A stretch of DNA of 64,000 nucleotides, from positions 3,782,001 to 3,846,000 of the forward strand of contig OX597829.1 of the NCBI GenBank assembly GCA_951406725.2. Direction: 5' to 3'. This DNA comes from Octopus vulgaris (lineage: Eukaryota). The notes below the pieces were generated by a model. The model saw nothing but the letters and a program-made list of their open reading frames with translations, had not been told where the DNA came from and did not search any database. Shown piece after piece: positions 21,025-64,000 of this stretch. Position 1 is the stretch's first letter. Every line of letters begins with the position of its first letter. The position numbers were made by a program, and so were the translations under genes.

Positions 21025-21694
21025 CAAGAGAGGGGATGAGAGAGAGAGAGATAGTCTCTTCCTTCCTAGCAGGGTATTTAACTGACCTTGAATGAAGTTA
21101 GGTTCATGTGCGGAACTGGGCCCCTAAAATTCTGGTTGTCATGTCAACACCTCTCTTTATTCACTGCTTCTTATACCCCTCACCCCTCTCCCTGTAGATA
21201 ACAGGTCTTCAGTGATAATGATTCTTTCGTCCCCTTTCCCCCCTCCTCATCGCTATGGGACGTCCCATGTTCTCCTTGTCTTGTCAACACTCTCGTATAT
21301 TTATAGACTGTACTCCTCTCCCTTTCATCAAAACAAGTGATTCTAGCTGAACTCACTGGTGCCATATTACCGTATTAAGGTGAAATGGAGGAAGCCCCCA
21401 AGACTGAAGAAATACTGGAGTTTAACCATCAGTTTGAGAATTAATCTTCCAAATCAGAATCCTTGGCATTGAGGTTAAGTCCGTGAGGGTTTCTGTTGGG
21501 GAATATCTGCCCATGATCTTATGCAACGGCGCTCAATTTCTGGGAGAAAGCCAACTGGATCATGGAAGCAGGGTCTATTGTATGCTGTGGATGATAATTA
21601 GGAGTGCCCAGCAGACCTTCCTCAATGGATGATTAAACTGAACATACGTTATTTACATTGGACAGATATTTGTCCTCATCTTGTTTTTTGTTAC

Positions 21695-21737
21695 CACAAC
21701 GTTTCGGCTGATTTACTCTCCAGCCTTCATCAGGTGT
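21695..21737 (-). ncRNA. Type I hammerhead ribozyme motif in PLE pLTR
   Basis: Minus strand reads ACAC-CUGAUGA-A-GGCUG(gagaguaaau)CAGCC-GAAA-CG-UU-GUG: intact core, perfect 5-bp stem II, palindromic minimal stem III. Confidence 0.75.
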
Positions 21738-22800
21738 CTTGGTGGAATTTTGAGCCCAATCCTGGTACTTTTTGGCTGATATTGTTCTTGTTATGTTCAA
21801 GTACTGCTAGATCATGTGAACTCAATAAAACCATCCATACAATTCACAATGGAAAAGGAAAAAGACAATCAGCTAGCATTCCTTGATGTATTAATAGCAC
21901 GCACGGGTTTAGGACATCCGTATACCGCAAGCCAACCTTCACTGGACGATACCACATCTTCAATTCCCACCATCCATACAGTGCAAAGAGAGGGATTGCT
22001 CAGTGCCTAAAATATCGAGCAAAGAATATAAGCTTCGATCTTGATACACACCACGAAGAAATGATCAAGCTCAGTAATAATCTATTAAGCAACAACTGGC
22101 ACCAAAACATACTCTTCACTCCAATTAGGAAGAGAAGAGAGGATGAAACCAATAAACTGTCCCCAGTCTGTCTACCCTATGTGAAAGGCCTCTCGTAAAA
22201 GGTACAAAAGATATATGGCCCATATGACATCAGGACAGTATTCAAGAGTAATACAACACTTCGCAACTATCTCCTTCGGCAAAAACCACCAATAGAAGAG
22301 AATATGACCAAAAACTGCGTGTACTCCATCCCATGCAGCTGTGGTTGGTTATACAAAGACGAAATGTGCCACCCACTCAAAATAAGGGTAGGGGAACATC
22401 GCAAAGCTGTGACACGGTGAGATATTGATAAAATCAGGTATAGCTGATCATGTATGGAAAAATAGAGACCACCTCCCCCTGTGGGATGAAGTCAAAATAA
22501 TAGACAGAGAACATCAATGGAAAATACGAAAACTAAAAGAAGCAGCACATATGCTAGGACACAACAACCTCCTAAGCAGACCGATTGCAGATATGAACAG
22601 CATATGGGAACCATATTAAGGAAGGATACAAGAATATTAGGTTTATAAGCCCTAAAATTCACTCCATAATTGTCCACGGACATATAGCGTAATGGTTAAG
22701 AGCACGGGCTATTAACCCCAAAATTGCGTGTTCACTTGCAGGCAGTACCTTGAATAAACAACAACAACTTCAGCAAAAATATACCTTAGGAATGAGAAGG

Positions 22801-42139: not shown

Positions 42140-44400
42140 AATAGAGGAAAAGTAAAAAGAAACAAAGAAAATGCGCACTAGGTATAAAAGTAATGGCTTT
42201 AATAAATATAAAAACAAAGATATCTACATACAAATAAATGATTTGAGGTGGAATTAAGAAGTATAGAAATCATTAGCATGAGTCAATATAGAAAGTCACA
42301 CCGGTTTCGTTATCGCTGTTCACTGACTTTGAATCAACACCGATTTCCAAACGGTGTTGGGTTTAATAGTACCTGAGTGAAAAGACTGCATGTAAGGGAT
42401 GTAAGCAGTTCTGAAAGTGATGCAATTAGGTTAATATGATTAATAGAATATGAATGGTATATGGGATGTATGAGGATTAGTGAGATTATTGGCATCAGTA
42501 AAGTTAGTAGTGTCATGTATTAAGTTGTGGTTGATACCTAGTAATGAAAGTTGCCTCTTTATTTAGACTTTGATGGGCTACGGTGTTCTGGGAACATTGA
42601 TAATAAAAGAAAATTAGGAAGTTTGGTTTAAGGTTCCTAGCACATCTATCTATGTGCTCACTGACCTGTATCTGTCTATATTGTGGGAAGCAGATTTGTT
42701 CTTTGTGAATCGTTGTTCTTTGTCTGAGGGATATTCGTGTTTGGCATATATAGTGGTTTCTGTAACCTAACCAGGTAATAACAAAGATTAGGTTTTCAGA
42801 GGCACAAGTGAAATTTGACTTTATCTTAAATATTTCACTTGGTTTGAAATGAAATTCTGTACCCTTCAAAATGTTCCACAGTTGGGCCTCCCGCATTTTT
42901 CCACTTTTGGTTCCGTTGTTAAGGGATATAATCTTGCATCGGTTAATATTTTTTCCATGATTTCGGTTGTATTTTGCTTTGATAATTTTGTTTGAGCCCA
43001 AAATTTCGTTCATTGTTTAATCTCCAGTGAGAATGGGTAGATTTTGAATGATGATATTGAACGCCTCATTGTTTCTTGGGGTTGTTTGTGGAGATGTAAG
43101 GGAGTACTTTTAAATTTGGTGTAGTATTTACTTCCCTTAATATTTTTATGTCTAATTCCTTTAATCCCTGTTGGGTAATGTCTCCTGATTAGTGTTAATT
43201 TAAGTTCACGGAGTCCTTAGTTCACGGGTATTGGTATCCGAAACTGTGGTACAAATTCTTTTCGCTAGATTATGAGGTATATTAATTTTTGTGCGTTTCG
43301 TGTGGAATGAGTTGAATAACAGGTATTGTTTTGAATCTTTAAGTTTTTAAAAGATGTCCGTTTCGATGTGGTTATTGACTATTTTAATTAGGATGTCAAG
43401 AAAAGGAAGTTGTTTATTGTTGTGTTCCATGGTGAATTGTATATTGCTATTGATATTGTTGAGCTTTATTTTGAAATCGAGGAGTTTGTCCATGCCATCA
43501 TCATTCCAAAGTATAAAGCAATCATCTAAGTACCTCTTCCAGTTCTTTAAATAGCAATGAAATGTACCATATTTTTGTTGTGATAATTGGTATATTTTAC
43601 GATCTAGATAACCCATTACAAGGTTCTCAATAACTGAGGCAGCTCGAGTTCTCATTGCAATTCCACATTTCTATCGATAGTAAACTATATCGAACACAAA
43701 GTAGTTATTCTGAAGGATAAATTTCAGTGCTGTGATTGTGAAGTGGTGGTTGATGCGTCCTGGGATCTCTTCTGGGTATTTTTTTCACCAGAAGGTGATT
43801 GCTTTTATACCATAATCTTGTGGGATACTGCTGTACAAGTTTACCGTATCGAATGATACCAATAGGGTTCCTTCATTTATTGTTTTCGGGAGGGGGTTAA
43901 GTATGTCTAAATTATCCCTGATGGAGCTTTTAACATATTTTTTAAATGGTTTAAGTAAGATGTCGAGGAAATTGCTCAAGCTGTTTCACAAGCTGGGCCA
44001 GCAATGATGGGTCTCAGTTTGAGGTCAGTAAGGGGGGCAGGATATTAATACATGGGCTTGATAAATCCATGCATGCTTTACTATGTGTATTTTTGTGTAT
44101 TTTGGGTAAGCCGTAAAAGAGACTTGGTTTGCATTGAAAATTGGATAAATAATCAATTTCTCTTTTAGTGAGGCTCTTTCCATGTATTAGAATTAATGAG
44201 GATAAGTTTTTAAGTGTCTTCTGTGGGTTATATAGTACTCTATCTTCTCATAGTAAGTATTGTTTTCTAGCATGGAAAGTATTGTCCATCACTACTACCG
44301 CACTTCCTTTATCGGCTTCTTTAAGGATCAGGTTTATATCATTTTTTAACTACATTAAGTTTTTCCGTTCATTTGTGTTGAGGTTGGATTTAATTCATTT
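42140..44400 (-). mobile_element. Decayed Penelope-like element (Neptune-type RT and GIY-YIG)
   Basis: LVSFDTVNLYSSIP, RYLDDCFILW, IQFTMEHNNKQLPFLDILI, FTCASENLIFVI...YICQT..SLRQR..IH; many stops. Confidence 0.85.
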
Positions 44401-46085: not shown

Positions 46086-48259
46086 TCGTCGGTACAGTGA
46101 ATGGTTGCGTCAAAGTTCCATGCGTCCGTAGAAAATCTTATGTGGCGTTCAAAATAGAATGGGGACACATGTTGGTTCATAATCTCTTACAAGTTAATTC
46201 TAAATAATAATAAAAAACAATAATAAAATTCTTGGTGTGTTTAATAGCATAAAGTTATTTATTTTAAGAGTTAGTTAATTAATTTCATTCTAAAAATAGA
46301 TTTTAATAAAGTAATTATTTATTACTGATTAATAAAAGAAAAATAATTGGCACAGGTGTTCCCGTGTGATTAAGAAGTCTGCTTCCCAACCACACAATTT
46401 TGGGTTCAGTCTCACATGGTACCTTGAGCAAGTGTCTCTTACTATAGCTTCGGATCGATCAATGCCTTTTGAGTGGATTCGATTGAGAAACTGAAAGCAA
46501 CTCCTGTGTGTGTGTGTGTGTGTGTTTAGTTAAATTTATAGAAAAACAAAGACGAAGACAAGCGTAGGAACAACAAGCAAGTGTATTAGTTCGACGCTCG
46601 GGAAAAATGGAAAAGTCTTTTACGTTTCGAGCCTATGTTCTTCGACCAAAAGGAACGAGAAAATAGAGAGAATAAATAAAAACGTGTTGAGTTCAGTGGT
46701 CAACATGGCGAATATATGTATATTTGTATTTATTTGTGTGTTTGAACGTGCGTTTGTGATTCCTTGTCTTGAAATCGTGTGATAGGTGTAGATGTGTGTC
46801 ACTGTCTTACAAACTGTGTCACTGATTCCCAGTATTCCGCCAGAACATGCCTGACCATGGGGAATTATTACCTTGCTTGGAAACAGTTTGAAGGTTGCGA
46901 CAGGAAAGGCCTTTAGCTGTAGAAAAGCCTTCAATAAACTCAACTTGAGTGGGTATTAGGATGATGGTGATGAAGATGAGGATTCTAGTATGTCTTGTTA
47001 TTGGAAAATATCACTTTACTTGGAAATATGTGAAGGCTGGCGACAGGAAGGACACCCGGCCGTAGAAAGTATGCTTCAATAAACTACATCCAACCCATGG
47101 AAAACTGAACGTTAAAAATAGATGATGATGGTTACTTCTTTCTTTTTCGTAACACCTGACAAATCATGTCTCACTTCCAGCAAATGCAGAAATTCCTTGT
47201 TGGAAACACCTGCCTTAAGGGCTCCTTTTTTTTTGGTTATGTAAGCAACAGGTTTCACAAGCTAGCGTTACAGTTTCGGTTATAGCTATTGGATTGCATG
47301 TATATCGTTAGAGTATTTAGGGAAGGTGTAGATAGCATCTAGGAAATTCTTATACGCCATCTTTCGTTTTATGTACTAAAATGGCCAACAATGTAGCATT
47401 TATAATGTATCGTTGGCATTTACGAAAGGAAGAATGAGATTTACCACATACAGTCTTCAGTTTTTGTGCTCCTTTCACTGTTGTCCGCTACTAGGGTAAG
47501 GCAGCGAGCTGGGCGAATTGTTAGCAAGTCGATCCCAACAACACTGGAGTCGATGTAATCGACTAACCCAGCCTTTAGAATTTCAGACCTTAAACCCTCA
47601 GTAGAGAGAATTATTATTTAGGCAGCAAGCTAGTATCGGACAAAATGCTTAGCGGCATTTTTTTCGGCTTTTAACGTTCTGAGTAAGTGGTGGACTAGGG
47701 TGTGAAAGGTTGTTTTCGGTGCCTCTTTATTGACACAACCAGAAATATGTATTCCTCTTGGCCCTCGTACTCTGGACCCAATGAACCATCGTGAATTTGT
47801 GAATTGGGGAGAGACTGACAGACAGACGCCACCCGCGAACGTGTGTGGTTTGGGGGCTTGTACTGCGCTTTTTCTGGTTGTTTTAGGTTCCTACGTAGTC
47901 AGAAGTATCCACCCTCTTGACCCCCAGCATTTTTGATTCAGCGGAACATCGTCGATGTGACAGCTAAAAGAGGTGGGGGTGAATGAGAGAGGGCTGCACC
48001 AACATTCGGCTGGTTGCTCTTTCACAGTTGAGTTAACTCGAGCGATATAAAAACGAGGTGCCTTGCTCTACGACACAATCCATTCAGCCGGTCCAGGGAA
48101 TCGAACCCTCTACATCAACGTACCTTCACAATTTCCGGTGTATAAGCTGTGGCTTTAAATAAGGGAAATCGAAAAGCATGCCAATATGTTTATTTACCGG
48201 AAACCCTTCATTCACACTTCAACGATGAATGATGAGTGGTCACGTTAAATTTGATCTCT

Positions 48260-56869: not shown

Positions 56870-57417
56870 CCGTCTTCGCTACGCCCTTCGGATCTACGAC
56901 GGGGCCACGAGCAATACGATAAAAATCCAGAGTTACTCGTGGTCGATGAATTTTTAATAAAAATGCGAAGGTGGTTTATGAATTCAAAAATCGATATCCA
57001 CGAAATAATCATACTTTCTGATTTTTTTTTAATGCTAAAAACCTTCCTAACGACCGTCTTTGTAATCCCGAAAAGTGTCGTGACCATTGGTCCTGTCGTC
57101 TGACCGTGAAGAGGGAACAGACAAAGAGACGGACAGGCAGGCGGACATAACGTCCGTTATAGTAAGATAGCAAATCTGTCCATGTACGATGGGAAATAAA
57201 GGGTTTATATCGCAAATCTAAACCCTCTAAATTCACGAATTATACGTTATAGAGTTAATCCACGTTGCCGGCATTTAAAAAAAAAATCTACAAAATGATC
57301 ATACTTTTTCACATTTTTTTTTTTGCTAAAAATCTTCCTGATTACCTCCTTCGTAATCCATTGGACCAGCCGTTTGACGGTGAAGAGGGGACGGACAGAC
57401 GCCCATTATAGTAAGAT
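56870..57417 (-). mobile_element. Helitron-like 5' segments, tandemly reiterated
   Basis: Minus-strand starts ATCTTACTATAA..GTCTGTCCGTC at 57417 and about 57168; the ~250-bp units share GATCATACTTT...TGCTAAAAA...GTAATCC...GTGAAGAGGG. Confidence 0.5.
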
Positions 57418-59072
57418 TATTATTATTGTTGTTATTATTTTTCTTCGACGCCAAATGTATAAATGGCAAAGTTGATATCTACAGGATTTGAACTCGGAAT
57501 GTAAAGAGCCGGAAGAAATGTCTGTAGGTATTTTGTCCAACTCTCTGACGATTCTTTCTACTCGCCACCTTGGACTAAGTAATAATTCTCTCTGCTATAG
57601 ACAGAAGGTCTGAAACTTTAAGAAAACGGGATGGAAAAGTCGATTACGTCCACCCCAGTGTTCAGCTGGTACTGATTTCATCGAATCCGAAAGGATGAAA
57701 GGCAAAGTCAATCTCGGCAGAATTCGAATTCAGCATAAAGACGGACGAAATGCCGCTAAGCATTTTGTCCGGAATGTTAATGATTCTGACAGTTCGCCGT
57801 CTTTTATTACAGCAACAATAATAATGCTTTCAAATTTTGGCACAAGGCCAGCAATTTTGGGAGAGGGGATAAGTCGATTATATCGATCCCAGTGCTCGAC
57901 TGGTACTTTTTTTTATCGATTCCGAAAGGCAAAGTCGACATCGGTAGCATTTGAACACGAAACGTAAAAAGGAGAAAATGCTGCTAAGCAATTTGTTAAC
58001 AACACTGTCAGCTCGTCAATAATAAGAACAGTTTTATCAAGCATTTATGTTCTGATGTGTGGCAGCTTAGTAGTTAAATGTGATGTTCACGCTCTTAAGG
58101 TAGTGTGTGTGATTCCTAAACCACTCAGTTTTGTCCGTGAGCAACGCACTTCATTTTACGTTGCACAAATCAGATTAGAATGCCAGTCACTACTAGTGCA
58201 CTTGCCCGCGCTCTCCGCTTCCCTCTCCATCGATATTCTGGTTCAGAGTGGGGGTGGTCTGGGAAGATGACTCGTGACTGCTCAAGCACCTGAAACTACT
58301 TCGAGCTGGCAGGGCCGTTAGTATGCTGCACAAGATGCTCAACGTTATTCCGTCTATCTCTACGTTCTGAGTTCAAATTCCGCCGAAACTTACTATACCT
58401 TTCATCTTTTCGAGATCGATAAAATAAGTACCAGTTGAGCTCTGGGGTGGATGTAATCGACTTACCCGCTCCTCCCTCGAAATTGCTGGCTTTGTATCCA
58501 TGCTAGAATGAAAAGGCGGCGCGCTAGCGGAATCGTTACCTTGGCGATATTGTCGTCTCTCTTTACGTTCTGAGTTCAAGTTATGCCGAGTTCAACTTTG
58601 CCGTTCATCCTTTCGGGGTCGGTGAAATAAGCACCAGTCGAGCCAGTTGATGTAATCGTCTAGGACCCTACTCCAAAATACCAGGTCTTATGCCTATAGT
58701 AGAAAGGATTATTATAACTGAACGCAACACGATCTGCACTCGGAACACTGCTGTAGCGAATTTCGATAAATTGATGGATGTTCTCTTTATCTTCCTCAAA
58801 AGCTTAAAAAAGCCTGTGCAAAATTGATTCGCAGACTTTAGGCTCGCCACAATATTCTCTCATTTTTAACGGCTTTCGCTTCGCTACTAATAAAGCATTG
58901 ATCAAAAGAACACCACTATCTCTCTCTCTCTCTCTCTCTCTCTCGGAGACCGACTGTCTAGCAACATAAATTAGATATATGTCATAAGTTATCTCTGTGA
59001 TGTAGTGGTGTGTGCGTATGTGTATATACATATGTATATTTGTGTGTGCTTTTATAGATATATAAGTACATA

Positions 59073-59119
<47 letters not shown>

Positions 59120-59364
59120 TTGTGTGTGTGTGTGTGTGTATAAATATACTTGTATGTGTATATCTTTATATATATTTAAAATGAAAGTTTACGAAAATAA
59201 ACAAAAGACGAAGGCAGGTGGTGTACAAACAAACAGATGTATTAGTATAGCGCTCGGGAATAGAAAAAGTCTTTTACGTTTCGAGCCTACACTCTTCTAC
59301 AGAAAGATACACAGAAAAAAACAAGGAGAGAAAAAAATGTGTGCAGTGGCTAACGATCTATCAT

Positions 59365-59420
<56 letters not shown>

Positions 59421-59440
59421 AATGTAATATATATATATAT

Positions 59441-59640
59441 TGTAAATGTAATATATGACAATTATTCGGTAGCCATGATAAAACTCCGAGTTTCGGATGC
59501 CGAGGTGGAAATCCACACTGCCATCTCTTCAGTTAACCGGCCGGATAACTGAAAAGATGGTGGCGTGGATTTCCACCCCGACACCCGAAACTCGGAGTTT
59601 TATCATGGCTACCGAACAATTGGCATATATTACATTTACA
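59441..59640. repeat. 200-bp spacer-less palindrome made of two inverted hammerhead-like pLTR units
   Basis: 100-bp arms centred on CCGG|CCGG (59540/59541), 10 mismatches by manual comparison; each arm reads CUGAA(G/A)A...GAAACUCGGAGUU outward. Confidence 0.9.
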
Positions 59641-59913
59641 GATAAATTCCTCTATTTACATAATATGGAGGTCTCTATCATTCTTTTGTTGTCTTGTGAT
59701 CTCTTGAGCACCACCAGCAAAAATATTTTTTTCCTCTGTCTTCCCTTCTCGGGATCTTTCCTTCTCCTTGTTTCCGACGAAGAGCTCCGCTCGAAACGTT
59801 AAACCCTCCTTCCCTTCTTTCCTGAGCGTCAAATAATACTTTATTTGTTCCACGTCCTCGCGTTGCTGTTTTTTTCTGTGTTTTCTTGTTTGGATTAACT
59901 ATATATATATATA

Positions 59914-59961
<48 letters not shown>

Positions 59962-60496
59962 GATCCATATTCAATTAAGGAAAATTATTTATTAATTGAT
60001 AATTCTTTCCTATAATTGTTTCAATTTGTATTCATTCAATAAATTACAAATTTATGCAATAAATCTGCATTTATAAGTTATGAGCAAAATATCATCAGGA
60101 AAATATTAGGCATTTAAAAATTACGTGGTCACCAATCTGTTCTTTCCAGCAGACTATTTTGAAATGTTTTTATTTTTTTAGTGTATGTGTGTGAGAACTA
60201 ACGGATACATCTGAATATAATTTCAAAAAATTAAAATAAAATAATAATAAATTATTATTAATTTATTAATAAATAATTATTAACCGTTAACTCCATTATT
60301 TTCTACTCTTAATTCAATATGGATTATATGCCTGAATATGTATCTGTTGCTTTAGGGAAATTTATTTCCCGAAGATATGCGGTATTGAACCGGTGTCTTC
60401 TTGGATGTAATCATCCCTTTAAGAGGTTAATATATTTTCTAATTAACTTACGTGTGTGTGTATGTATGTGAGTATGAAAAAAAGAAAAAAAGACTG

Positions 60497-60639
60497 ACTT
60501 CACTGGTAGTTCTAATCAGTTTAATTTATTATTTTTTAGCATTTTTTTAATAATATAAATTTTAGTTCGAACTAAAATTTATATTATTAAAAAATGTAAT
60601 TAAAAAATGAATGAAACTGATTAGAACGAATAGTGAAGT
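60497..60639. repeat. AT-rich foldback palindrome
   Basis: ACTTCACT...GTTCTAATCAGTTT...TAATAATATAAATTTTAGTTCGAACTAAAATTTATATTATTA...AAACTGATTAGAAC...AGTGAAGT. Confidence 0.8.
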
Positions 60640-61404
60640 AATTTTTTTTTTTTTTTCAAATATTCCCAACTGTGCGAAGAATCTCACACATTTTCATAAA
60701 CGAAAAGGCAAAACATGCAATGAAAATTCCATAATGGAATGAAGGCATGTCTCAGCAAGAGGTGTCCATCATTGTCACATCTGTGCAAAAGAGTTTAGGT
60801 CCCTAACAGAACTGAAAAGCCTCCTCTGTGCAGCTCCTGTTTAAGAGAAAAATCAAGCGATGGCATTGCTCGAAATCAAGCTGCAGCACATCATCTCCCT
60901 CTCATCTAGCTATCTGTTTTGTTTGCCTTAGAAAATAAGTTCTAGGAGCGATTTTTCGACTAAAATTCTTCAAGGCGGTGCCCCAGCATGGGCGCAATCT
61001 AGTGACTGAAACAAGTAAAAGATAAAAAGTTAGAGATATACTTATAACCGCGCGCACCCATGTGGTGTATGATACTTAACCGAAGATGAAAAAAAAAAAG
61101 ATAAAAAGTATATCAAGCATTTATAATTATGATGGTGTTCGTGCTAATTTGTCGGCGTTGACAGATGTGAAGATCTAAATTAATCTAGTAGACACTAGTT
61201 TGGCAATGTTGCACTGTATTATTTATTAGGCTTTAGGCTCCAGTGAAAGACGAGCAGTATTTAATGAAATATATCGTTAATCTTGACACAAAAGCTTTTT
61301 ATTAACATTCATTATTAGACTCTTGTAATTTCCCCCCCCCCTCATCCCTCTTAAACAAACATAGCTACAATTTCATATTAGCAATCTCTGTCTGTCTGTC
61401 TGTC

Positions 61405-61716
61405 TATTTCTTTCCACCCCTGTCCTTATTTTGTCTGTCGGTCTATCTGTCGTCTGCCTCTCTCTCTCTCTTTCTCTTTCTCCCCACCCATCTGTCGGTC
61501 TATCTGTTGTCTCTCATACTCACTCTTTTTCTTTCCCTTTCTCTCTTCATCCCCGTACTTACTTTGTTTGTCGGTTTTTACTCTTATCTACCCCACTCTC
61601 TCACTCTTTCTCTCTCTTTCCACCCTGCCCTTATTTTATCTCTTGGTCTATCTGTCGTCTGCCTGTCTCTCTTTTTCTCCACCCCCGACCTTATTTTTTC
61701 TGTTGGTGTATCTGTC

Positions 61717-61725
<9 letters not shown>
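61405..61725. repeat. Degenerate ~65-bp minisatellite, about 5 units
   Basis: Recurring CCACCCC..CCTTATTTT..TCTGTCGGTCTATCTGTCGTCT. Confidence 0.65.
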
Positions 61726-61759
<34 letters not shown>

Positions 61760-64000
61760 ATACACACATGCACACGCACTCAGTATTTTTGTGCCTCGAG
61801 AGGGTTTTAATAAAATCGCCACATGAAACTCCGGAACTCATCTTTTAATAAAGAGACCCCCATCAATTGAAAAGCCAGTGTTTGTCTGCCATTGACTTGG
61901 AAACCTACTCCCTTTTCTTAATGTAGATCGTTTTCAGAATCTTGTTTGGTCTTTTCCTTTTAATAATTTCCCAAACTTTTTAGACTATCTTGATGTACCA
62001 GTTGCTTTTTATACTACAGCCGTATATTCCAGAAAATTAAGGAGAATGACGCCCTCGTCATGTAAAAACAAAGCAAAAAACAAGAAAAGAAAAAAAAAAG
62101 CTTGCTTTTCAGCCACATGGTTCCGGGTTCAGTGCCATTGCGTGACATCTTGAAGAAGTGTCTTCTATTATAGCCTCAGATCAATCAACGTCTTGTGAGT
62201 GGATTTGGTAGACGGAAACTGAAAGAAGCCGATCGTGTGTGTCTTCGTGTCTGTGTTTGTCCCCTACCACCGCTTTACAACTGGTGCTGGTGTATTTATG
62301 TCTCCGTAACGGAGCTCACCTTCTGTAGATGTTGGATAGTCAATACCCTTTCTTCATTGCCAACTCTATAATGGTGTGCTGTTTCTGTACGGGTTACTGT
62401 GGCAGAAGAGTTACTCTACAAACATGTGTGAATTGAATGACATACGTCTGTTGTAAAAGAGTTGTGCCAACTTTGTATTACTTTTGATAAAACAATCGGA
62501 TAACACTACATCAATGTTGGCCGAAACTATTGACATTTCTCGTTCACATGTATAATTAGAAAAAAAAGTGATGATTCGATTTTACACTTTGAGTCGTGAT
62601 GGAATTATCCAGCGTTAGTTGTCCCAAATATAGGGGTGATTTAGAGAAATTATAATACGCAATCATTACCGCGCGATAGTATTAACAACAACAGTAATGG
62701 TTTCAAATTTTGGCACAAGGCCAGCAAGTTCGGGAAAGGGGGCTTGTCGATTATGTCGACTCCAGTGTTCCACCTGGTACTTATTTTATCGGCCCCATAA
62801 GGGTAAAAGACAAAGTCGATTTCGGTGGAATTTGAACTCAGAACAAGGAAAGGGACGAAATGTCGCTAAACATCTTGCCCGGCGTCCTAACGATTCTGCC
62901 AGCTCGCTGCCTTAATAATAATAATAATGATGATGATGATGATGATAATTCTTCCACATTTAGACACAAGGCTAGCAATTTTGGGGTGAGAGGATTAGTC
63001 AGTATCATCGATCCCAGTACTTAACCGGTGCTTTATTTTATCGACCCTTGGTAGGGATAAATAGCGAAGTTGACCTCAACTGAGAATGTAGAGCAGCCGG
63101 AAGGCATTTTGTCCGACGCTCTTATGGTTCTGCCAATCCACTACCATCGTAATTATAAGTCTAATACGATGCAGACGCGCGCGCACACACACACACTCAC
63201 ATACACACACACACAGGCACACGCACACGTACAGACGCACGCACCGACTCATACAACACACTCTGTGCACGGAATAGACACATGATCTGTAGCAATGAAA
63301 GGAAACAGACACAAAGTTGTAAGAGTGTGCAATTATGTCGGCAAGACGGGGTGAATGAGGCGGAGTGGGGTGGGCGGGCTGACACGGGATTTCAGAGTGG
63401 GGTACTGAAGGCGGCTGAGCGACTCCCGAGAATGCAAAAGAATAACTAAATGCCCTGTTGTCACAGTTGTGAAAGAACAAAAGCAAATTCAACAGCGACG
63501 ACTGTCTCTTCGTTTGGTGTTCGGGAAGACTATGCGGATTGGTGTAGTCATTGTAGGAACTAACCCCGTTTCACCCTGTTTCACCTTACCCGGTTAACTT
63601 GAAGTCTTCGTTCAGATCTCCGACATAGCAATTTCCTATTGCCTCTGCCGTATCTTTACCTCCCGGTAACTTTGTCTCCTGCTGAGTGACATTACACTGG
63701 GATAAAATGAAATCTATCTCAGATTGCCCCTGGGTGGTAGCCGGAAGGTAATTTCATCTTTGCCAATATGATTTCATATTACACAATATTTATTCATCGC
63801 GTTTTATCGCAGTAGTAGCGGCAGTAGAAGTAGTTGTATTAGCAGCAGCAGCAGCAGCAGCATAAAAGTAGATGAAGGCTAACTCAGGGTTGTAAAATAA
63901 AATTGATTTCAGATTGCCAAGATGGTGGGGAGTAACTTGAAATGTAGGTTCACTGGAAGTCAAGAAAAACGAACGTTGCGACGTATAACAGAATTATAGT

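Follow-up and report, generated by a model that had tools for sequence, protein, structure and literature searches.

A symmetric array of four hammerhead motifs in the Octopus vulgaris genome as a very probable pile-up of three separate Penelope-like element 3′ ends in one (TA)n tract

Penelope-like elements (PLEs) carry hammerhead motifs whose role is called an open question in the text of Craig et al. (2021, PMC8557442). The minimal PLE hammerheads of PMC4209133 have a short helix I, an extra base between positions 9 and 10.1, a G10.1-C11.1 pair and a palindromic A-CG-U helix III. Most of their copies are single truncated ends, and pairs of these min-HHRs occur on opposite strands 100-700 bp apart (see also the Fig. 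S4 legend of that study). In vitro they were left uncut as single motifs and showed weak cleavage as dimers or trimers. The PLE footprint given in the text of PMC8557442 is an inverted 5′-truncated copy with a one-sided tail and a bias toward (TA)n, and the Hydra clade is described there as inserting in (TA)n. A further group of short hammerhead-bearing elements, the animal non-LTR retrozymes, is described in the available text of PMC7229834 and of bioRxiv 10.64898/2026.07.22.740005 as PLE-related, with type I motifs arranged in head-to-tail tandem monomers that each carry the same hammerhead.

Here we analyse a window of 64,000 nucleotides from Octopus vulgaris (contig OX597829.1, positions 3,782,001 to 3,846,000), in which a preliminary description had placed four hammerhead-like motifs around a palindrome at 59271..59804. 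All four motifs and the 200-bp palindrome are present as described and the coordinates agree. We hold with high confidence that this block consists of three separate high-copy PLE 3′ ends (A, B and C), likely independent insertions made at different times in one (TA)n tract, and that its fourfold symmetry is likely a coincidence. The features, with the motifs named H1 to H4 from left to right, are as follows.

59176..59367, minus strand: element A, the 5′-truncated 3′ end (pLTR) of a C-related PLE family, ending in (TA)n; the 40 best copies are 94-96% identical.
59270..59307, minus strand: H1, a minimal type I hammerhead motif with core CUGUAGA (A6U); predicted cut after 59275.
59368..59440, no strand: (TA)n tract with a short duplicate of the B arm end, the target-site spacer between A and B; from sequence.
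59441..59540, minus strand: element B, short inverted arm without tail, bearing H2; from the inverted repeat and copy comparison.
59477..59537, minus strand: H2, a hammerhead motif whose core, CUGAAGA, is intact; its helix II is long and its helix III is ACUCGGAGU.
59541..59695, plus strand: element B, long arm with the pLTR 3′ end, H3 and a tail at about 59645-59695; marks of a Hydra-clade PLE.
59544..59604, plus strand: H3, a hammerhead motif with core CUGAAAA (G8A); from arm differences.
59696..59899, plus strand: element C, the 5′-truncated pLTR 3′ end of a young PLE of Neptune/Nematis type, ending in (TA)n.
59770..59804, plus strand: H4, a minimal type I hammerhead motif with core CCGACGA (U4C) and ACGU helix III; predicted cut after 59800.
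59900..59960, no strand: (TA)n tract at the 3′ end of C; from sequence.

The palindrome is an inverted repeat of 100+100 nt (59441-59540 / 59541-59640) with a spacer of 0 and arms that are 90% complementary. It is asymmetric, the right arm alone extending, as a tail, to 59695. The outer motifs H1 and H4 both face outward, and their C3 positions lie 238.5 and 233.5 bp from the palindrome centre, a symmetry within 5 bp; the earlier figure was about 250 bp on either side. The downstream words that these two motifs had been said to share are also present and are explained by the kinship of the two families, whose sequences here can be aligned at 73% across 64 nt (E 0.001). No DNA alignment was found between B and A or between B and C. 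Two other points held in part. The block had been called free of ORFs; stop-to-stop frames of 164 and 106 aa do cross it, but they are low-complexity or span element joints. (TA)n tracts do flank the block, but a further TA-rich spacer of 73 bp lies inside it at 59368-59440.

We searched 2.8 Gb of the genome in 227 contigs for copies of the three parts. Exact patterns, those for A and C each spanning several subfamilies, counted 17,419 A-type motifs, 12,135 C-type motifs and 1,781 B arms. The reversed-pattern controls gave 0 matches for A, B and C; with thousands of copies per motif family, the motifs are therefore not chance words. DNA searches with each part recovered full-length copies of that part alone. 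With the left part as query (A), the 40 copies scored of 2,699 candidates are 94-96% identical; with the right part (C), the 40 scored of 1,724 are 97-99% identical; with the palindrome (B), the best other copies among the 40 scored of 2,633 reach 92%. Nearest-copy identity is thus 92% for B, 96% for A and 99% for C, indicating that the pieces differ in age. B- and C-family sequence (window 59545-59895) also occurs at 95% or above in contigs of two other organisms, indicating that these two families are shared with relatives.

Copies of A and C have their 3′ end fixed on (TA)n and variable 5′ ends. Among position-ordered copies, (TA)4+ lies within 260 nt after the motif in 23/30 for A, 25/30 for C and 28/30 for B, all given as raw rates. 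That all three families end in (TA)n explains the pile-up. For B, 9 of 30 entries taken in chromosome order are inverted pairs (one locus being counted from both arms), and of 16 other palindromic copies, 15 carry the tail on one arm and one arm only, and 0 carry it on both. In the window, the last ~14 nt of the B tail are missing and C is joined there directly, with one shared base. When two 3′ ends are fused through their truncated 5′ sides, an outward orientation of both is unavoidable.

Individual B copies show further joints. Copy L099, ~160-180 nt past the pattern match, has its B tail interrupted at the very base where the tail in the window ends, and a 5′-truncated A-like element follows; 5′ joining may thus favour a point ~14 nt short of the TA tract. 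In L090, L101 and L102, the palindrome centre between the inverted arms contains fragments that derive from the 5′ region or ORF start of B itself, which we read as a sign of template switching. The B tail of L101 runs on into the 5′ leader of the ORF.

Longer copies of all three families lead upstream into PLE endonuclease coding sequence, bearing out the earlier link of the block to PLEs, and on this ground each of A, B and C is identified as the 3′ end of an EN+ PLE. Two long C copies, L080 and L082, can be aligned collinearly at 82% through 3.4 kb. Upstream of the 3′ end, long C copies pass through a CA-rich stretch into coding sequence that shows RT motifs, then a linker of the form C-x4-C-x2-C, then a GIY-YIG region with cysteines between its boxes. 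The RT motifs lie in the L082 frame, whose Atlas look-alikes are RT clusters at 0.96. Pfam matches the GIY-YIG domain on C frames at E 0.002-0.015, below the curated cut-off, and at E 0.001 it finds zero domains on them. The CX2-5CxxC linker and the inter-box cysteines of L082 point to a Neptune/Nematis-type parent. As in the Neptune/Nematis EN+ PLEs described in the text of PMC8557442, C combines the RT, the C-x4-C-x2-C linker and inter-box cysteines with an upstream partial tandem pLTR: in L080, a second copy of the C 3′ end precedes the coding part. In L036, L038, L040 and L026, a (CA/CATA)-rich 3′ untranslated region of 2-3 kb separates the endonuclease from the hammerhead; the A family likewise has a long 3′ untranslated region, which is C/CT-rich.

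Four of 29 longer A copies, with extensions of at least 1.5 kb, reach RT/GIY-YIG sequence on the same strand, and these coding remnants are 49-58% identical to those of the C parent. The A RT is recognized by homology only, in the thumb region of L141, and a coding link looked for in L083 and L084 was not found. A is accordingly a C-related PLE, to which Neptune/Nematis features extend by homology only. The C and A families differ from the described Neptune/Nematis elements in hammerhead cores that deviate family-wide.

For B, a 1.27-kb extension of copy L093 reaches an endonuclease remnant (a GIY-YIG frame), and the B arm lies downstream on the same strand at 9 of 14 other top-scoring endonuclease loci. 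The frames of L262 and L263 show CxCX5C in the linker and CxxC and CxH around E and N; they lack CCHH, and cysteines are missing from the stretch between the GIY and YIG boxes. L261 showed no long frame. The RT catalytic motif of the B parent was not found in 15 loci; of the RT, a thumb-like HTH region is what was seen. RWK is seen only as RMR*K in L102, and a DKT motif was looked for and not seen. The B parent thus has the marks of a Hydra-clade PLE, an assignment made from linker and endonuclease. It resembles the Hydra-clade elements as given in the text of Craig et al. (2021, PMC8557442) in its C-terminal GIY-YIG without inter-box cysteines, CxCX5C and CxxC/CxH, in the decayed RWK, canonical-core hammerhead and (TA)n targets, and in the inverted truncated copy with a one-sided tail. 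It differs in a tail of ~65 nt versus 30-40, and in that DKT and the RT core are not seen. Between the B and C proteins there is no alignment (best E 1.2).

The preliminary description had put first the idea of a single non-coding, retrozyme-like element, mobilised by PLEs and bearing two ribozymes on each strand; the ~720-bp block would then be copied in one piece by PLE machinery. The outward geometry and the 238.5/233.5-bp symmetry would suit such a unit, as would the fusion of C to B without a TA spacer, and like the animal retrozymes the block is short, non-coding, PLE-related and furnished with type I motifs. Its recurrence was searched for directly: a 28-mer across the B-C junction, with 1 mismatch allowed, occurs at a single place in 2.8 Gb, which is the window, and the parts recur separately, in thousands and at unequal numbers. 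Loci other than the window with all three parts number 0 of 132 at about ±1.5 kb and 0 of 194 locus entries at ±600 bp (a set overlapping the others). Both A and C are near B at 0 of 70 distinct B loci, out of at least ~1,500. Moreover, the parts are ends of different coding elements with non-aligning endonucleases, and they lie on opposite strands in a non-tandem arrangement, with tandem monomers absent; no direct repeat of any motif-bearing piece was found within 57000-62000. The same-strand motifs also have different helix III palindromes (ACGU versus ACUCGGAGU), and a length-variable TA tract lies inside the block. A single mobile unit is thus extremely improbable, and the family split together with the unique junction supports the fallback offered alongside it, a hotspot of independent pLTR insertions. 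Among the contigs of 4 runs matched to 59545-59895, which are thousands, short and from other copies, none listed spans the B-C joint with 31 letters on each side; these contigs are informative neither on expression nor on polymorphism. No run on record as RNA was listed as containing the sequence, which is evidence neither for nor against expression. Beyond the 70 B loci inspected, A-B-C arrangements that recur rarely, with another B-C junction, may exist.

How surprising is the symmetry if the three insertions were independent? Among the 70 B loci, A is near at 5 and C at 1, compared with 0.7% and 0.5% under uniform scatter of exact-match copies, an enrichment that a shared target predicts and that is overstated, as 2-mismatch detection is compared with exact counts. 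Applied to ~1,500 B loci, these rates (5/70 × 1/70) give ~1.5 expected triples, a lower bound since exact matches miss diverged copies; we expect ~1.5 to perhaps 20 triple loci. The neighbours of B face outward in 5 cases and inward in 6 (n=11), at distances of 157-1474 bp, and from this spread we estimate that both-outward orientation with symmetry within 5 bp arises in roughly 1 in 100 triples, which counts against our reading. Each distance, however, adds up unrelated pieces, among them a TA tract on the left and a cut tail on the right. Given how many PLE families this genome contains, the symmetry is an unlikely outcome but not an exceptional one. The composite itself is a caution that PLE ends stacked in TA microsatellites can mimic designed symmetry.

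We propose that the GIY-YIG endonuclease of each element would nick (TA)n and that reverse transcription would begin at the RNA 3′ end and halt after 100-200 nt, leaving the hammerhead-bearing pLTR end only. For B, one insertion event would have written both inverted arms, only one of them tailed, as is usual for PLEs, and this pair alone would yield both inner outward-facing motifs. A and then C would have been added at TA tracts flanking B, with C replacing the end of the B tail. The order B, A, C is suggested by the divergence ranking and the cut tail, rather than by an empty or partly filled allele. Instead of separate insertion, A or C could have been attached in the same event as B, by RT template switching between the RNAs of the families, as a one-off chimera. 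Such an event would account for the C 5′ end meeting the B tail directly with one shared base, for the matching break in the L099 tail, where an A-like 5′ end follows, and for the template-switch pieces at the B centres of L090, L101 and L102. However, C points away from B and terminates in a TA tract of its own at the 3′ side, like an independent insertion; by divergence it is far younger than B (99% versus 92%), and the two parents come from different clades. We regard a shared event as very unlikely, if less so than a single mobile unit, and retain independent insertions.

In structure, H1 has stem I UCUUU/AAAGA, an extra A, stem II GAGU/GCUC, GAAA-CG-UA and a palindromic ACGU helix III, and H4 has stem I GUUU/AAAC with core CCGACGA. 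Both thus show the three-helix architecture, extra base, G10.1-C11.1 pair and palindromic helix III of the minimal PLE hammerheads of PMC4209133. They depart from these at the core, which the descriptor given in the text of that study required and from which H1 (A6U) and H4 (U4C) deviate; H2 and H3 differ in lacking the extra base and in a longer, quasi-palindromic helix III. The core CUGANGA...GAAA...UH is matched by H2 only, H3 carrying G8A. It had been noted that several cores deviate from CUGANGA, which is correct; A6U and U4C are family-wide, but G8A is a private mutation. In the B family, the core is CUGAAGA in 43 of 54 scored arms. H3 adds a helix II mismatch to its private G8A change, and H2 has one U-U mismatch in stem I that is private to the window copy (family stem I GAUAA/UUAUC). 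A generic hammerhead scan misses H2 and H3 because helix II has an additional C at its base; both were verified by hand. The Rfam hammerhead models, proposed earlier as a check on the motifs, gave zero matches to the block even at E 10. Rfam miRNA matches in the block were rejected, being TA repeats and the palindrome, all under gathering scores. Folding of the minimal motifs as monomers gave non-significant z-scores (0.91 and -0.77), as expected for motifs this minimal.

The motifs would have served their parent elements, cutting tandem precursor RNA as dimers. Within the block, same-strand pairs have different helix III palindromes, so heterodimers are not expected, and since both ACGU motifs are on opposite strands they would have no dimer partner here. 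In a modelled transcript across the centre (411 nt), the arms form a ~100-bp hairpin (-178.7 kcal/mol, z -19.6), and read-through RNA would bury H2 and H3 in it. H3 is likely inactive to judge from its substitutions, and the motifs at this locus are likely inert passengers. We also weighed whether a chance cluster was later co-opted as a bidirectional RNA-cutting or dsRNA element for a host transcript, given that the H2 core is intact and the arms are still 90% complementary. Yet both inner motifs are damaged, H3 by G8A and the helix II mismatch and H2 by the stem I mismatch; the arm differences match the size expected from the age of B; read-through RNA would sequester H2 and H3; and single min-HHRs showed no cleavage in vitro (PMC4209133). 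Co-option is the least probable of the explanations considered, and we deem it next to negligible.

The deviations of H1 and H4 cannot be put down to decay, a cause we rejected as A6U and U4C are family-wide. Among the 17,419 A-type motifs, 15,648 have A6U (CUGU-N-GA) and 169 the canonical CUGA-N-GA. In 30 position-ordered A copies, chosen because the remainder of their motif matched exactly and including two that are arms of one locus, U6 is found in 29, C3 in 30, U4 in 29 and G5 in 30, and position 7 takes all four bases. Clustering these copies at 90% gives 23 groups, and in the 90 nt that follow the motif their mean identity is 69%. Conservation of 95% or more is also seen in 19 of 88 flank columns, and common descent by itself may therefore account for the constancy of U6. 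For C, a hand count of the first 100 listed of 12,135 cores gave 70 with U4C and 22 canonical, and C4 is present in all 29 of the closest, youngest copies. CpG decay as the source of the canonical C cores was rejected, CTGA standing at 22 versus 3 for CCAA (hand count of 100 listed copies).

Positions 4 and 6 of the hammerhead form the U-turn. It is possible, though less likely than not, and we suggest it tentatively from these conservation patterns, that the A clade carries a working natural A6U hammerhead and that selection in A and C has favoured self-cleavage that is slow, or that depends on a cofactor or protein, or else a fold kept as an RT recognition signal. Natural core variants of this kind are on record: according to the text of Perreault et al. 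(2011, PMC3088659), U4C in a viroid has low activity in vitro that suffices in vivo, and the available text of a Brill-type study (PMC7151607) describes A6C in a phage as slow and preferring Mn2+. A6U, present here in ~15,600 genomic copies, was not found in the text or text supplements of PMC3088659, and both A6U and U4C are absent from the readable rows of Fig. S3 in PMC4209133, which show CUGA or UUGA. A literature search for A6U or cephalopod PLE hammerheads in openly accessible text returned nothing on point. Two highly successful sister families whose cores are altered family-wide at positions 6 and 4 provide a natural experiment on what PLE mobility requires: rapid cleavage, slow cleavage or the fold only.

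The window holds other elements of related kinds. A more decayed A-like pLTR end lies at 46560-46700 (minus strand), with a hammerhead-like motif (core TTGGTCGA region, GAAACGUA). At 21690-21740 (minus strand), a min-HHR of a further PLE family has the canonical CUGAUGA core, an extra A, a 6-bp helix II and A-CG-UU. Decayed PLE coding sequence at ~42600-44400 (minus strand) retains DKG and YLDD motifs and an endonuclease region, and is 32% identical to the C RT. A short interspersed repeat occurs several times, in direct and in inverted orientation at ~200-235 bp intervals, at 57440-57960 and 58351-58674; it resembles a common SINE-type repeat.
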